IMG/VR virus record: IMGVR_UViG_3300024312_000003
Location: 116,491 to 180,490 of that record
Strand: one strand, 5' to 3'
Source: a virus
Length of the DNA: 64,000 nt
Positions 708 through 39,706 of this stretch are shown here, in pieces; the first letter of the stretch is position 1; every line of letters begins with the position of its first letter. The notes below the pieces were generated by a model that saw only the letters and a list, made by a program, of their open reading frames with translations, made no database searches and was not told the origin of the DNA. A program made the translations under genes and the position numbers.

Positions 708-869
708 TGGACTTTCCTTATGTCGGTGGACACGAAATAATAAACAACATATAGAGGAGGGAGATTTCTCTCCCTCCTCGCATTCCTGCTCTTTCCTCAA
801 TCAAAGAATTTAACTGTCTTTTTCAAATCCATTACAGATTTGATACTCATCAATTAAATCGGCAGGAAT

Positions 870-1208
870 ATCAGATTCAATAGGTTCGGATCATTATCAC
901 CTACTTGTTATTAAACCTGATAACTAGGTTTTGCTCAAGCGGCCAGGCGCTGAGCAAACGTGCTGTCGTTTGCGGCAGTTAAATTGAGATTTGTATGTTT
1001 CGATTGATTTCTCAATCTCTAACGGAGTTCTCATACTTACTCCGAGTAGTAATCTCCACTAGCTCACCCTGTCGAAACCAGATCTGGCCCACCTAAACAA
1101 ACACAATATTGAATCTGCTTAGGTGGACCAGGTGGGAATCGAACCCACGTCCAGAATGCATTTGCTTTGATTTTCAGTTTCGGTATTTCTACCTCTACAC
1201 ACTACCAT
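870..1208 (-). ncRNA. ssrA: Circularly permuted (two-piece) tmRNA gene: acceptor piece ~1208-1121, intervening hairpin, coding piece 1090-~870
   Basis: T-arm GTGGG-TTCGATT-CCCAC plus CTGGTCC-A-CC lies upstream of the 5' end GGGCCAGATCTGGTTTCGAC. The acceptor stem pairs 7/7 including G3:U70. Tag ORF, P5 hairpin and pk2-like pseudoknot (907-931) follow. The 870 boundary is approximate. Confidence 0.92.
935..973 (-). other. tmRNA tag reading frame (A)ANDSTFAQRLAA*
   Basis: GCA AAC GAC AGC ACG TTT GCT CAG CGC CTG GCC GCT TGA, preceded by TTAACTGCC resume context. Confidence 0.9.
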
Positions 1209-1742
1209 TTATACTTCAGTCCAAGTTCTGCCATTTCTAATATCAGAAACAGTTGATTTGGATATGTTGTATTTATCAACATAGTAACTGTATGGTTCTT
1301 TTCCGTATTTGATGTTACTAACCTGCTCTATTGTCAAATGCGAATTATTTCTAACATTAATACCTTTAGCAGATCGACCTTTATTTACCATATCATCCAT
1401 ATTGTCTTGATGAGTGCCTGCAAATAAATGATCAGGAGCAACACATTTACGATTATCACAATGATGACAAATCATAATACTGGGGTCAAGAATCTGACCA
1501 CCAATAAATAATTGAAAAGCCCATCTATGAGCGCGTATTTTAGACTGTTCCTCTCTAGATCCAACTGATATCTGACCGTATCCATCTTGATTGAGTTTAC
1601 CTGTCCACTCTATACAATCATTATTTGGATTAAGTTGAAGTTTGTCTATAAAACGTTTTAAGACTTTTTCATCAAATACGATATCTGGATCTAGAGAATT
1701 TGACATGATGCGTCCAAGAATTATTGTACGGAATTGTGCCAC
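1209..1742 (-). CDS. Free-standing HNH homing endonuclease (HNH_3-like); probable start 1706
   Basis: CIEWTG..N.DGYG.I, RAHR, CHHCDNRKCV.PDHL..GT..DN..DM motifs. Confidence 0.9.
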   Translation of the reverse strand: MAQFRTIILGRIMSNSLDPDIVFDEKVLKRFIDKLQLNPNNDCIEWTGKLNQDGYGQISVGSREEQSKIRAHRWAFQLFIGGQILDPSIMICHHCDNRKCVAPDHLFAGTHQDNMDDMVNKGRSAKGINVRNNSHLTIEQVSNIKYGKEPYSYYVDKYNISKSTVSDIRNGRTWTEV

Positions 1743-12441: not shown

Positions 12442-12655
12442 AAGCTTTTAGATCAATTAGGCTTTCAAGAACACCCATTAATTCTTCATCTTTTGGTTTA
12501 GAATCAAGAAGAGATTCTAAACCAAGAATATGTTTTTTAATTTGATCTTTTATCTGCCACTCAGGAAACCCAGATTTTAGAAGACAAACGTATGGTGATA
12601 GACTTTGACGGGTTTGTAGATTGTCAATTTTTTTAATTTCTAACAGGAGGCTCAT
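12431..12655 (-). CDS. Hypothetical protein, tandem paralogue B
   Basis: Same shared pattern; start likely MSLLLE at 12655. Confidence 0.65.
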   Translation of the reverse strand: MSLLLEIKKIDNLQTRQSLSPYVCLLKSGFPEWQIKDQIKKHILGLESLLDSKPKDEELMGVLESLIDLKAYVS

Positions 12656-13268
12656 TGTCTTTCCTATTCTCTTCTTTTTCACGAATCAATCTACAGACAG
12701 TAGTTCTGAGTCCCGGATAACACTCATGAACACTACCCATCAGCTTAATTCGAGTTTTATTTCTCAATCCAGAATTTGGATCACTGTTACTGGGATCACT
12801 CAGATGCTCAAGATTTCTGTTCTGAGCATATTCGTAAATCTTTGATTTTGGAGTGCAAATCAGCGGGCGAATAACGTTGTTATTTTGATATTCCAGAATT
12901 TTAGGAGTACCTTGGAAAGTACTCATGATGTACCATTCGACAGCATCATCAAGATGGTGACCTGTGAGTACCATCCTGTCCATGGCTTGAAAGATCTTGT
13001 ATCTTTCACGACTCCAATAAGCTTCCTTTGAACCCGGTCCTTTGAATGCTTCGATTTGTTTAACAAGCAATTCAATACCTAGTTCCTTAGAAAGATTTTC
13101 AGCAAACAACTGTTCCTCATCGCAGAAATTGCCCCTGTGATGAATAAACAACAACTTAACGTCTACTTTTCTCTTTACTAGCAAATGAAGCAATACAGCA
13201 GAATCCACACCTCCAGAGAAAGCCAGGTACACTGGTGTATTGATTCGCTTAAAGAAACTAATTTTCAT
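12633..13268 (-). CDS. tilS: tRNA(Ile)-lysidine synthetase, catalytic PP-loop domain only
   Basis: AFSGGVDS PP-loop, ERY, TGHHLDD..E, IRPL, DPSN.D, RN..R motifs. Confidence 0.9.
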   Translation of the reverse strand: MKISFFKRINTPVYLAFSGGVDSAVLLHLLVKRKVDVKLLFIHHRGNFCDEEQLFAENLSKELGIELLVKQIEAFKGPGSKEAYWSRERYKIFQAMDRMVLTGHHLDDAVEWYIMSTFQGTPKILEYQNNNVIRPLICTPKSKIYEYAQNRNLEHLSDPSNSDPNSGLRNKTRIKLMGSVHECYPGLRTTVCRLIREKEENRKDNEPPVRN

Positions 13269-13314
13269 TTTACAATTATTGTTTATCAATTAGAACAAAC
13301 TCAAGTCTTTGAAA

Positions 13315-13662: not shown

Positions 13663-13746
13663 TATATTGAGTTGGTTGATAAAAAATAAATTAAAGTTTA
13701 GGGCATATTTAGGTAGGTAGCTTATCGCTACCTACCTAAATTATGT

Positions 13747-14108: not shown

Positions 14109-14702
14109 TCATTTAAAATATCCATCTGCCATTTTGGCAATTGAATCGATGTGCGGAATCCAAATAGCTCGAAGAACTGGATCTGTCCAAACATTGGCAG
14201 TCAAATTCTGAGCAAGGAATTCATTGCTTTGAGATGTAGTCTTTGTAATTTGACCAGCCGCAACACCAGCTACAAAAGAACCAATTGTAGCAAGATTACA
14301 TTTTGCAGGAGTACCAACCAAAAGTACTGGATAATCTTTATCCTGACAATACCAAGCAGCGATACAGCCAGTGGAGTCCTTCATGAAAAATCCCTTACTA
14401 CCAGTACCGCCAGGTACCTGTGAGGGATAACATGCGAGTACGTCTTTAACTTCCTTGCAAGATTTAGAAACTCCGGGATTCGGATCAGTTCCAAAAGTGG
14501 TATTGTTACAAATGTATGTGCCTGGAGTAAAATCTTTACTAACCCACTTTGAACCAGCGCCATAAGTTACTCTGGTATCTTTCAGAATGGTCATGGTTTT
14601 ACCACCAGACACATTAACAACTTGAGTTTGTGCTTGGACTGAACCCAACATTAGAAATGTTGAAAAAACAAAAAATAAAAAGCTTTTCAAAGAATATTTC
14701 AT
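14109..14702 (-). CDS. Predicted secreted Cys-containing protein
   Basis: Signal peptide (MKYSLKSFLFFVFSTFLMLGSVQA), YGAG..W...C.N.TFG.DP.PGV.K.C module. Confidence 0.7.
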   Translation of the reverse strand: MKYSLKSFLFFVFSTFLMLGSVQAQTQVVNVSGGKTMTILKDTRVTYGAGSKWVSKDFTPGTYICNNTTFGTDPNPGVSKSCKEVKDVLACYPSQVPGGTGSKGFFMKDSTGCIAAWYCQDKDYPVLLVGTPAKCNLATIGSFVAGVAAGQITKTTSQSNEFLAQNLTANVWTDPVLRAIWIPHIDSIAKMADGYFK

Positions 14703-14716
14703 GATTTTCTCATTGG

Positions 14717-14790
14717 TGGAGCGGGCGACGGGGATCGAACCCGCGTCATTAGCTTGGAAGGCTAAGGTTCTACCATTGAACTACACCCGC
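14717..14790 (-). tRNA. tRNA-Gly(TCC)
   Basis: GCGGGTG...CGCCCGC-T-CCA, anticodon loop CTTCCAA. Confidence 0.97.
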
Positions 14791-14823
14791 AGATTAAGAA
14801 GAAGTTCTTCTTAAGATATTGCT

Positions 14824-15033
14824 TTATTTGGAAGAAATACAAGAGTACGGATTAGCATATCCATCATTCTTTTCAGGATCATAAATCAACGTACCCTTTT
14901 GAGCAATGCAAGAATTGATTGTTGCTCGGAATTTGTATTGTGTCGAATTAAAATACAAAATAGACACAATTGAAAGAGCCAAAATAATGGCTGCGACATA
15001 AATAGAAATCGGAGTATCTTTATACGAACTCAT
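14824..15033 (-). CDS. Small single-pass membrane protein
   Basis: Hydrophobic helix then two Cys. Confidence 0.6.
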   Translation of the reverse strand: MSSYKDTPISIYVAAIILALSIVSILYFNSTQYKFRATINSCIAQKGTLIYDPEKNDGYANPYSCISSK

Positions 15034-15058
15034 GATTTATAGTAATTTAGTGGATGGA

Positions 15059-15091
15059 TGGTGCCGGTTGACAGTCTCGAACTGCCGACCT
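15059..15091 (-). pseudogene. 3' piece of a split tRNA (variable loop, T-arm, acceptor strand, CCA)
   Basis: AGGTC-GGCAG-TTCGAGA-CTGTC-AACCGGC-A-CCA. Confidence 0.85.
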
Positions 15092-15662
15092 ATTCAATAA
15101 TTATTGGTTTCACCCAATAACCCCTTGGCGGTTTTTCTATTGAATATATTTTACACCATTTTTCAATTGTCTTATCGGAAACACCATAATCCTTAGAAAT
15201 ATGGGTAGTGGGTTTCGACCAGACTAACTTCTCAAGAGTCTCTTTAGAAGGTCTATCTTTAACTATCCGTGCTCCAATTTTTGAACAGTTTGCTGAGCAA
15301 TATTTAAATTCAGGATAAATAGGGTATTCGCAAACGATACACCGTATACACCCCAATTTAATTCTTTCAGAAAATTCTTTGTTTGGTTCAAAAGAATATT
15401 TATTCATCCAACCATGCAGTTTAGCATGCATTGGATTTGAAAGAATCAACAAATTGTCAGGAGAATTATTTTGTCTATTTTGATCCAGATGATGAACTAC
15501 TTCTCCTTCTAGAAGCGATCTTCCCATCAGATTCTCAGCAACAACAATATGTTCGTAAACATATCCTTCGTAAGATCCCGAAGCTATAGCTCTCGGATGA
15601 TATGGCATCTTGACCAAAACATATCCGTTGGTATCAATTGTTCGTCTAAAAAGTTTGTACAT
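15090..15662 (-). CDS. HNH homing endonuclease
   Basis: NGYV, YEHIVVAE..MGR.L...EVVHH.DQNR.NN.PDNL, CxxC...CSxxC; ATG at 15662 (the track start at 15701 lies inside tRNA-Tyr). Confidence 0.9.
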   Translation of the reverse strand: MYKLFRRTIDTNGYVLVKMPYHPRAIASGSYEGYVYEHIVVAENLMGRSLLEGEVVHHLDQNRQNNSPDNLLILSNPMHAKLHGWMNKYSFEPNKEFSERIKLGCIRCIVCEYPIYPEFKYCSANCSKIGARIVKDRPSKETLEKLVWSKPTTHISKDYGVSDKTIEKWCKIYSIEKPPRGYWVKPIIIE

Positions 15663-15675
15663 GATTTTGATTGGA

Positions 15676-15750
15676 TGGTGCCCTGTCTGTGAATCGAACA
15701 CAGATCGCCGCCTTACAAGGGCGGTGCTAAGACCTTCCAGCTAACAGGGC
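15676..15750 (-). tRNA. tRNA-Tyr(GTA), short variable loop, nested inside the split tRNA
   Basis: GCCCTGT/ACAGGGC acceptor, CCGCC-CTTGTAA-GGCGG, CGAT variable loop, CTGTG-TTCGATT-CACAG, A-CCA. Confidence 0.85.
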
Positions 15751-15786
15751 ACTATGAAACAGAAACAAATACAGATTTAGAAAGAA

Positions 15787-15810
15787 CTCTACCAACTGAG
15801 CTAAACCGGC
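15787..15810 (-). pseudogene. 5' piece of the split tRNA (acceptor strand plus D-arm), Thr/Phe-like
   Basis: GCCGGTT-TA-GCTC-AGTTGGTA-GAG; acceptor strand pairs 7/7 with AACCGGC at 15063-15069. Confidence 0.85.
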
Positions 15811-15862
15811 GACTTAGATAACAAACCAAGAGTCAGGAGATATTTCTATCTCCTGACTGAAA

Positions 15863-15939
<77 letters not shown>

Positions 15940-16031
15940 GTTATCTACTAAACCATGGAAGCGTGTGCTTCTTTCCAAATCATAGATGATTGTGGTAAAA
16001 AAGTATTTGTTTTTCCATATCTATCAATATT

Positions 16032-16039
16032 GTAATATG
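16032..16039 (-). promoter_or_regulatory. Putative promoter CATATTAC upstream of the tRNA cluster
   Basis: Recurrent motif. Confidence 0.4.
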
Positions 16040-16057
16040 GTTCTGAAATACTTTTGA

Positions 16058-16546
16058 TTACAACTCTGTTTTAAATCCGTACTTAACAATGGACTCAATC
16101 AGATATTGACTTGAGTCTGGTTCAAAATACATGTTCTTTCTATCAAAGATTAAACACTGATTAGAACCTCTATCGTGAGCGACTAAATCTAGAAACAAAA
16201 ATACATCCTCACCATTTGAGGTAAGAATCCATTTCATGTCATCATGTTTATTTGTCTTGTCGCGAATGAGTCCAGTAATGGGTCTTTCTCTTAGTTTCCT
16301 ACAGTAATTCTTATAAATTACCAAACTGACACAATGATTTTCAAGATAATCAGATGCCACCTGACCAGCATTGTTATAAATCTTGTTGTAAGATATACTG
16401 TTTGCGTTTAACTTATTCCAAATATGATTAAACGCAACTCTGCTCATTTCTTTCAAAAGTGTTCTGACTGAGTCAGTTCTCTCGATGCTTCTTAGAAAAA
16501 GAAGATATTGTCGAAGCGTAACGTCTTGGTAATTTTGAACAATCAT
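16058..16546 (-). CDS. Hypothetical protein
   Basis: ORF track. Confidence 0.6.
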   Translation of the reverse strand: MIVQNYQDVTLRQYLLFLRSIERTDSVRTLLKEMSRVAFNHIWNKLNANSISYNKIYNNAGQVASDYLENHCVSLVIYKNYCRKLRERPITGLIRDKTNKHDDMKWILTSNGEDVFLFLDLVAHDRGSNQCLIFDRKNMYFEPDSSQYLIESIVKYGFKTEL

Positions 16547-16547
16547 T

Positions 16548-17042
16548 TTATTTATGTTTAATTGTAATCTTTTTATCTTTAAGCCAATTTGGAATATTTA
16601 TTTTCTCTACAGTTAGATACTTTATTTTAGTTTTATCGGTTTTCCATTCAGTCTTGATGTTGTTTACATCATTGTTATTTTTAATCCACTTATCTGAATC
16701 ATTAAAAACAATTGTGTATACATATACTTCTAGTTTATGTAAATCTTCTAAACTAAAAGATGTATTACTTGTAAGTATATCTATCACATTCTCGTCTAAA
16801 GATATTTTATCAAGAGTGTGCTTATGTTCTATAGAACTTGCAAATCCTAAGGATATTGCTTCTTGCCTACTGGAGGTGGCGTATAGAAACAAATTACTCT
16901 CACCATCATCCCACTCTACTAATTCTTTAGAACGATAATAACCCGGCATCAGTTCCTCATGATGAAATGATGATCCGTGAAATAAATACTTAGGATTGGT
17001 ATTATCAATACCGTTTGGGTGAGTTATGTTTAAATGTTTCAT
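16548..17042 (-). CDS. Hypothetical protein, possible ADP-ribosyltransferase-like fold
   Basis: YLFHGS...L.PG...LYAT...A pattern; start MKHLNI at 17042. Confidence 0.5.
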   Translation of the reverse strand: MKHLNITHPNGIDNTNPKYLFHGSSFHHEELMPGYYRSKELVEWDDGESNLFLYATSSRQEAISLGFASSIEHKHTLDKISLDENVIDILTSNTSFSLEDLHKLEVYVYTIVFNDSDKWIKNNNDVNNIKTEWKTDKTKIKYLTVEKINIPNWLKDKKITIKHK

Positions 17043-17112
17043 AATTACAAAAAAAAAAATCCTATACACAACATAAGACAGAGGGACCATCCCTCTGTCT
17101 TATGTCTTTCAA

Positions 17113-18436: not shown

Positions 18437-18489
18437 AAAAGTTTCTCACAAAAAGAAAAGGGAGTTACCTCCCTTTTCTAGTCTAAGAA

Positions 18490-38418: not shown

Positions 38419-38755
38419 TGTTGAGTTCAATATGGTTCGTTAATCCATACCCGCACCATGACGTGCAGCTGCATGTTTCCATGCATGACCAGACTATATC
38501 ATCTTTCCTATTTGGAAAGCTTTCTGTTTCGAACCACTTGGTTCTACTCTACTTACTTCCAGCGTTTGCTGTGTTTTCGATAGTCGTTGAACGTGCCTCC
38601 AATCATTGGAGGATTCGCTGCTGGTTGTCCAATCCATCTCGTTTTCAAACCATGGCTTTGCTTTGCAGCTCGCAGTGGTGAAATGGCTCTAAGGAGTTTC
38701 TAGCAATTAAGAAAGTTTTCTAATGAGATTACTCTCAAAAGGCGCTCAGTAATTA
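38419..38755 (-). mobile_element. Group I intron in thyA (337 nt, no homing endonuclease)
   Basis: P AATTGCTAGAAAC, Q AACCAGCAGC, R GTTCAACGACTA, S GATATAGTCTG; P1 with U:G after CAGCGT; splits YQR|SADV. Confidence 0.92.
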
Positions 38756-39706
38756 ACGCTGATACAGAAGGCATGAAAGTCTACCACTAGGAATTCCAAT
38801 TTCCTTAGCAATCTTAGCAGCGATTTTGAAACCACTCTCTCCAGATTCTACAGCTTGAGTAATTTCGATTATTCGAGACTCATGACCAGCAGTAATGATA
38901 TCTGCGGTGATTTCTTCCAAAGGAATTGGTTCCACGTCAAACTGGAACAAGCAATGACATGCTGCCAAAGCCATTTTACCTTGAATAACATTATCTTGAG
39001 GACTAATGGTTTCGTCAGGCAGATCGGCAGGATTCCAGGCAGTAACAATGATGCGTCTAGAATAAGGACGATTCTTAATCGTATCAATTGCTTCTTGAAG
39101 CTGATCGATAACTAGACCTGATGGAGTTTTCCAATTGCGCCATTGTGCACCATATACTGGACCGAGATCACCGGATTTAGCAATCGTATATTCAACAAAT
39201 GGATTAACACCACCGTCAAGTAGAAACTTCATGGTTCCTTTAGTAAAACCATTCTTAAGTCCATCTTGCATGTATTCGTTTACTTTGGTACGAATAACAT
39301 CTAGTGGTTCTCCGATATTGTAAATACCAGATTCGATATCTGCTTTTTTCAGATAACCAATTACCTGTTCCTCATGCAGATTATGAGCTTTAGAATATTC
39401 TGAGATCAATTCATTAAAAGGACGAATTCTTTTAATGACAGCGTCTTCTTTAAGAGCCCAGCTGTCCCAGATGTGTACGTCTTTTTCAAGAAGATAATTG
39501 ATGTTGGTATCACCTTTGATGAACCAAATCAGCTCTTCAATGATTCCTCTGGTAAATACCTTCTTAGTCGTCAAAAGAGGAAAACCTTCTCGGAGATTAA
39601 AACGCATCATTGCACCAAAAATAGCAATCGTTCCAGTGTTGGTTCGATCGTCTCTCTCAGTGCCGTTTTCCAAAATATTCTTAACAAGATCTGTGTATTG
39701 TTTCAT
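38756..39706 (-). CDS. thyA: Thymidylate synthase exon 1 with large insertions
   Basis: DRT.TGT, GFPLLTTKK, EL.WF..G.TN, LGPVYG.QWR, ACH, YQR. Confidence 0.95.

Follow-up and report, generated by a model that had tools for sequence, protein, structure and literature searches.

A threonine tRNA gene in the 64,000-nt stretch of viral DNA analysed here (the window, part of a 180,490-nt contig) is interrupted in an unusual manner: positions 25–42 of the resident canonical tRNA-Thr(TGT) are gone, and their place is taken by a non-canonical tRNA-Thr(TGT) together with an HNH gene. We consider it likely that this insert is an HNH homing-endonuclease cassette of the free-standing, intron-less kind, which targets tRNA genes and carries its own cut-resistant rescue tRNA, and that the two flanking halves are remnants of the resident gene. 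The components of the locus and its immediate neighbours, all on the minus strand, are the following.

15863..15939 (-): intact tRNA with a CAT anticodon (Met or Ile2), adjoining the split gene
15831..15858 (-): 12-bp hairpin in the gap that separates the CAT tRNA from the split gene
15810..15787 (-): outer 5′ half, tRNA positions 1–24 (acceptor strand and D-arm), a probable remnant of the resident canonical tRNA-Thr(TGT)
15786..15751 (-): AT-rich spacer of 36 nt between the outer 5′ half and the inner tRNA
15750..15676 (-): inner complete tRNA-Thr(TGT) with encoded CCA (ARAGORN; Rfam, 58.5 bits)
15662..15090 (-): HNH ORF of 190 aa, whose TAG stop is made up of tRNA bases T43-A44-G45
15092..15059 (-): outer 3′ half, positions 43–76 (variable loop, T-arm, acceptor strand, A73 and CCA), a probable remnant
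14717..14790 (-): intact tRNA-Gly(TCC), downstream; in L020, its counterpart is interrupted by the HNH gene that is the closest homolog (63% identical)

An earlier note on this DNA, made from the letters alone, had described a replacement of positions ~25–43 by ~695 nt; the replacement is real, and the exact values are positions 25–42 and 694 nt, although A42 of the outer tRNA (15093) is perhaps also kept. The perfect acceptor stem, T-arm and CCA of the outer frame hold up on inspection (all seven acceptor pairs form, and the T-arm, the discriminator A and the CCA are intact). The D-arm is present, as that note had it, but only three Watson–Crick pairs remain in its stem, with C25 lost or in a G-U wobble. 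The 190-aa HNH ORF, separated from the inner tRNA by 13 nt, does overlap the outer variable loop with its stop codon, as had been noticed. The last ~22 nt of the spacer resemble, in alignment, the leader of the stand-alone odd tRNA-Thr found in sister phages.

The nested layout is genuine, exceeds what chance would give and was met again in sequence data of three further studies. The real 180-kb genome has one frame of this sort, whereas 20 order-2 Markov simulations of it produced none. In runs X3, X4 and X6 (from the three further studies) and in L289/L290, the insert is bridged by single contigs, so the layout is not an assembly artefact. Neither the outer 3′ half nor the inner tRNA had a match when viral contigs were scanned for exact patterns, and ARAGORN, run with a relaxed threshold and long introns, returned only noise. 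Read joints from 15090/15092 to 15787, which mimicked an empty allele, were arms of tRNA-Val(TAC) from other organisms. RNA run X17 yielded one 258-nt contig over 15530–15787, at a depth of three and without ends, which may be DNA.

The identity of the outer tRNA follows from its uninterrupted look-alikes: 102 of the 102 intact viral-contig tRNAs that share its acceptor end and D-arm (the first 24 bases matching, with one variable position permitted, and an identical acceptor end) are Thr(TGT). At 23 of 24 positions, the outer 5′ half agrees with the intact syntenic Thr gene of L020, the best phage matches of the outer 3′ half are annotated tRNA-Thr genes, and this 3′ half also aligns with the intact syntenic allele of L296 and with L020. 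When the gap is filled with the anticodon arm of L296, a normal tRNA-Thr results. The inner tRNA, complete as the earlier note had claimed, was there called tRNA-Tyr(GTA); the anticodon had been misregistered by one base, and ARAGORN and Rfam both return Thr(TGT). Its oddities are G14 instead of A14, the lack of A21, A15-U48, U52-A62 and a 4-nt variable loop, and it retains the Thr identity bases G1-C72, C2-G71, G35 and U36. An identical copy exists in L286, a copy with two changes in L295, and the stand-alone tRNA-Thr of Vibrio phage V05 matches it at 76%. As both tRNAs are Thr(TGT), the cassette replaces like with like. Of the homing cassette proposed earlier as a means of swapping tRNA identity, the destruction of the resident anticodon arm and the delivery of its own tRNA are supported, but no swap has taken place.

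Relatives carry three alleles at this locus. Allele A, the intact canonical Thr gene, is present at the syntenic site in L296 and L020, so that the uninterrupted outer tRNA which the earlier note wished to see in relatives does exist. In L296 (~80% nucleotide identity), the full anticodon arm is followed by the same 69-aa ORF and tRNA-Gly, on a contig that begins at tRNA position 22 (L284, L291 and L296 stem from one sample, in which contigs break at tRNAs); in L020, the intact Thr gene sits between its CAT tRNA and Gly. With L296 only ~80% identical, no same-species empty allele for the window phage was found among these relatives. The HNH gene is optional, as it is missing at the homologous locus of L296 and L020, where the intact site remains. 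Allele B, the nested form, is that of the window, L289/L290, X3, X4 and X6. Allele C consists of the odd tRNA-Thr alone, followed by an ORF of 59–62 aa, without halves and without HNH, and is carried by L286/L294 (flanks mostly 96–98% identical) and L295. Since allele C has the inner tRNA without the outer halves, the outer frame is dispensable. Alignment gave no direction to the order of alleles B and C: allele C could have supplied the inner tRNA or could be the end point of decay.

Among the strains with allele B, the cassette is nearly invariant, against 2–3% divergence in its flanks. X4 differs from the window at one of 866 positions in the cassette region and at 21 of 907 in the flank, X3 (matching L298) at two of 877 and 20 of 907, and X6 at seven of 833 and 16 of 506, a comparison of three strains that is suggestive only, with mosaic genomes and clustered differences making Fisher p-values overstate the effect. 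L289 and L290, identical to each other, have an invariant tract (14560–16774) that reaches far past the cassette and were left out of this comparison. The pattern fits, suggestively, a recent spread of the cassette among allele-B strains, in which case the perfect outer stems would need no selection; they had earlier been attributed to either recency or selection, of which the former fits and the latter is not required.

The HNH ORF matches Pfam HNH_3 (E 1e-9) and phrog_15471 (E 3.5e-34), and is built of an HNH_3 domain, a Cys-rich middle and a helical C-terminal domain. The His/Asp/Asn and Cys columns are invariant across 71 homologs, and the AlphaFold2 model (pLDDT 92) has its best Foldseek match in I-HmuI (1u3e; E 0.013, probability 1.0). 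The protein is the sole member of its family in the 180-kb contig. It combines an HNH domain with an intact catalytic motif and a DNA-binding region, and its gene has no intron or intein setting (Rfam, with L105/L110 as positive controls), as expected of a free-standing HNH homing endonuclease. From its family and its predicted fold, we infer that it nicks or cuts DNA at tRNA genes.

The association with tRNA genes extends to the family. A tRNA lies within 350 nt at 25 of 35 distinct loci of full-length homologs versus two of 63 loci that share the HNH domain only (p 4e-13); seven of the 10 full-length loci without such a tRNA show halves or odd tRNAs when inspected by eye. Family members split Thr, Gly, Asn, Lys and Met/Ile2 genes, at times inside group I introns. 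The gene is split without a spare in L017 (Thr), L020 (Gly), L038 and L044 (both Asn) and L040 (Lys), and with a matching spare in L030 and L033 (CAT) and L001 (Thr), while an odd tRNA accompanies the HNH gene without any halves in L023, L026 and L297. In L017, the same kind of Thr gene is split by a 59% homolog with an identical 3′ junction, at position 43; L272 has the tRNA of L017 intact, but without synteny to L017. Group I introns surround homologous HNH genes in L105 and L110 (Rfam) and in L002, L041 and L111 (by eye), and these introns lie in the anticodon loops of tRNA(CAT). Nested forms are spread over at least four distinct regions of the HNH tree, and inner and outer isoacceptors match wherever both could be typed; near neighbours in the tree occupy different tRNAs. 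This scatter suggests that a general tRNA motif is the target and that the cassette has been assembled repeatedly.

Other tRNA genes of the same phage group have met a comparable fate. In sister L286 (4608–5301), the counterpart of the window's CAT tRNA is cut after approximately position 27 by an unrelated HNH_3 ORF, which is followed by a long-armed replacement tRNA(CAT), and the old 3′ half is gone. In sister L297 (1340–2040), an odd, rewired Arg(TCT) that ARAGORN missed and a 51% HNH homolog replace the canonical Arg(TCT). The window genome keeps both its canonical Arg(TCT) (C1:109371–109447) and its CAT tRNA intact. Four tRNA genes (Thr, CAT, Gly and Arg) have thus been struck in different strains of the window's phage group. 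A rewired Arg tRNA like that of L297 is also present in L025. The tRNAs beside members of the HNH family often have the T-loop GGATCG and not GGTTCG (L023:2384–2468, L026:2345–2419, L031:2398–2472 and L033:2379–2453), a candidate immunity signature. In L038 (1887–2307), a GOLLD RNA lies immediately upstream of the tRNA cluster with the HNH-split Asn gene. In L031 (2111–3055), an outer tRNA with an apparent group I-like stretch is followed by a spare tRNA(CAT) and the HNH gene; this layout is possibly an intermediate between the intron and cassette forms, and Rfam gives no match there at the gathering threshold.

A counterpart of the cassette exists in a laboratory phage. In phiKZ (AF399011, L299:1766–2615) and PA1C (L300), the halves of a tRNA-Asn gene, which carry no annotation in the phiKZ record, flank an odd, long-armed tRNA-Asn and the HNH gene gp296, whose product is 43% identical to the window protein. 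Some 20 phiKZ-like isolates (e.g., L304 and L307) have an intact Asn gene, 774 bp shorter, and approximately eight others have the cassette. Compared with the intact allele, the phiKZ halves are changed at four of 76 positions, by which an anticodon-stem pair and the T-loop are broken; three of the four changes are adjacent and may be one event. The phiKZ flank, in comparison, has three differences from phage LC in ~1,250 nt. In a knock-down screen (PMC12571901), gene 296 is given as coding for an HNH nuclease, and its effect as weak. Churi (L305:102–234) and OMKO1 (L306:1548–1634) have the odd phiKZ tRNA-Asn at a second site as well, where gp296 is absent; at the Churi site, a 5′ tRNA half with a TTT-containing loop precedes the tRNA-Asn, and a 335-aa ORF comes after it.

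Taken as a homing cassette with a spare tRNA, the insert would work as follows. In a co-infecting relative with the intact allele, the HNH protein would cut or nick conserved tRNA-gene sequence, and repair from the cassette-bearing genome would copy the cassette across, with homology provided by the flanking DNA and the leftover halves. The old Thr gene would be dead, since no intron is spliced and the anticodon arm is absent from the DNA, and the inner isoacceptor would offset the loss of the resident tRNA-Thr. The changes at normally conserved positions of the inner tRNA may also prevent its own cutting. In relatives, the halves have proved dispensable, being eroded or lost. Cleavage and homing by the cassette are what we infer from this arrangement. 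The odd tRNA-Thr is not an obligate part of the cassette, as it also occurs without HNH (L286, L295 and Vibrio phage V05), and some HNH homologs split a tRNA gene without any spare (L017 and L020).

The earlier note had also raised the reading that the outer halves are a functional, tmRNA-like frame around the HNH mRNA, which would be processed, protected by its CCA, charged or used as a decoy. The outer stems are indeed perfect, and a fold prediction for the isolated 752-nt RNA includes the acceptor stem (pair probabilities of 0.75–1.0), but the remaining evidence speaks against such a frame, which we regard as improbable. Sister phages have the inner tRNA without the outer halves, and one or both halves are gone in other cassettes. 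The ends of the insert form no P2-like helix (−10.7 kcal/mol versus −10.6 ± 2.8 for shuffled sequences, 44% of which do as well), the frame has C3-G70 rather than G3-U70, and without an anticodon it offers none to ThrRS. Maturation of the inner tRNA would presumably cut the long RNA twice. The phiKZ halves appear to decay, their four changes in 76 nt (three of them clustered) standing against the three in ~1,250 nt of flank. Moreover, the genome already has a permuted tmRNA of its own (844–1213), which was the only match of tmRNA covariance models and ARAGORN, with none at the split gene. A narrower variant, in which the halves form, in this lineage, a tRNA mimic that lacks an anticodon and, with its T-arm and CCA, caps the nuclease mRNA, controls the level of this mRNA or acts as a decoy for host tRNA-cleaving defences, strikes us as very doubtful, since it is disfavoured by the sisters without halves and the decay in phiKZ.

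An unusual intron, the splicing of which would restore the outer tRNA, might be thought of, as homologous HNH genes do occupy group I introns in tRNA(CAT) anticodon loops. Rfam, however, finds no group I core in the insert, at the gathering threshold or at E values up to 5, in agreement with the earlier note, and only 49 nt of the insert are non-coding outside the inner tRNA. With positions 25–42 missing from the DNA, a spliced product would have no anticodon arm, and a full tRNA is obtained only with the arm borrowed from L296; we hold this explanation to be extremely improbable. Rather unlikely, in our judgement, is the proposal that the nuclease cuts tRNA genes mainly to attack co-infecting relatives, as a weapon, or has lost its mobility. 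On this view, illegitimate recombination would have joined an odd-tRNA allele and an HNH-split allele a single time, and ordinary selection, such as selection for resistance of the tRNA to host anticodon nucleases, would have spread the resulting nested allele. Possible parents exist, both for the odd Thr alone (L286 and L295) and for an HNH-split Thr gene without a spare (L017). Interference by an HNH homing endonuclease has been demonstrated for phiPA3 gp210 (PMC11620839), and phage tRNA loci are under selection from host tRNA-cleaving defences (PMC13096335). A single accident is, however, hard to reconcile with nested forms that have matching isoacceptors in at least four regions of the HNH tree. 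Use as a weapon and homing can, besides, both hold.

Set against known systems, the enzyme class and homing in tRNA clusters are familiar. SegB of T4/T6 is a homing endonuclease whose free-standing gene lies in a tRNA gene cluster (PMC2330249, PMC13096335); like the window gene, it is intron-less and lies among phage tRNA genes, and it cuts the tRNA genes of relatives at a T-arm motif and spreads with the flanking tRNAs (PMC2330249, PMC13096335). SegB is, however, a GIY-YIG enzyme encoded between intact tRNA genes, whereas the window gene codes for an HNH enzyme and sits within a tRNA gene with its anticodon arm deleted, and has a divergent isoacceptor at its side. Genes of the mob type (Aeh1 mobE in nrdA, T4 mobA; PMC2988022) share the insertion of an HNH gene into a critical part of a gene without a splicing intron, and I-HmuI is the closest fold match to the window HNH model; genes split by mob elements still work as two polypeptides, while the split RNA gene here would be dead, with a second copy in its stead. 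Another known system is that of group I introns in tRNA genes (reviewed in PMC3984707). Introns of this type with HNH ORFs occur in anticodon loops, and the same HNH family is found in tRNA(CAT) introns; in contrast, the window locus has no ribozyme core, its target is partly deleted, and rescue would come from a spare gene rather than from splicing. Like tmRNA, the locus has a reading frame where the anticodon arm would be, enclosed by an acceptor stem and a T-arm with CCA, yet here there is no G3-U70, no P2 helix and no conservation in sisters, a D-arm is present, and the ORF has its own ATG and encodes a 190-aa enzyme. Integrative elements and prophages that enter tRNA genes bring along a duplicated fragment of the tRNA, by which the gene is restored. 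The cassette resembles them in that an element enters a tRNA gene and brings function-preserving sequence with it; it differs in having neither an integrase nor an att duplication, and in that the spare is a whole, divergent tRNA. A literature search that covered a minority of subscription papers found no paper on a nested tRNA layout in phages, and the main text of PMC7162821, consulted for a tRNA within a tRNA in huge phages, does not contain the word 'intron'.

Beside splicing and working split halves, the cassette would represent a third route to occupy an essential site, namely to destroy the gene and carry a divergent spare, and thus a natural cleave-and-rescue drive against an RNA gene. 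If this is true, it would help to explain why non-canonical tRNAs are so numerous, and the turnover of tRNA clusters so fast, in large phages, and such tRNAs would be predicted to be immune to the adjoining nuclease. The phiKZ layout, together with the cultured empty-allele relatives LC and SL2, makes homing, target site and immunity testable with existing tools.

The genome is that of a phiKZ-related jumbo phage, judged from the sequence of its nrdA (~60% identical to PA1C-like phages) and the presence of internal head protein families; a sister contig measures 265 kb. Six phiKZ core genes, including that for chimallin, have no tblastn match in the 180-kb contig, which is probably partial. 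The permuted tmRNA at 844–1213 (-) is phage-encoded, specifies a tag peptide and is of the betaproteobacterial type, which hints at a betaproteobacterial host. A short TilS-like PP-loop protein is encoded at 12633–13289 (-), near the CAT tRNA (15863–15939), which may for this reason be Ile2 rather than Met. Sister phages have a different sequence that forms a similar hairpin at the place of 15831..15858, and other strong intergenic hairpins in the window lie at 17071–17105, 13707–13741 and 18454–18479. The window also contains a group I intron at 38469–38765 (-) (Rfam RF00028, 94 bits).
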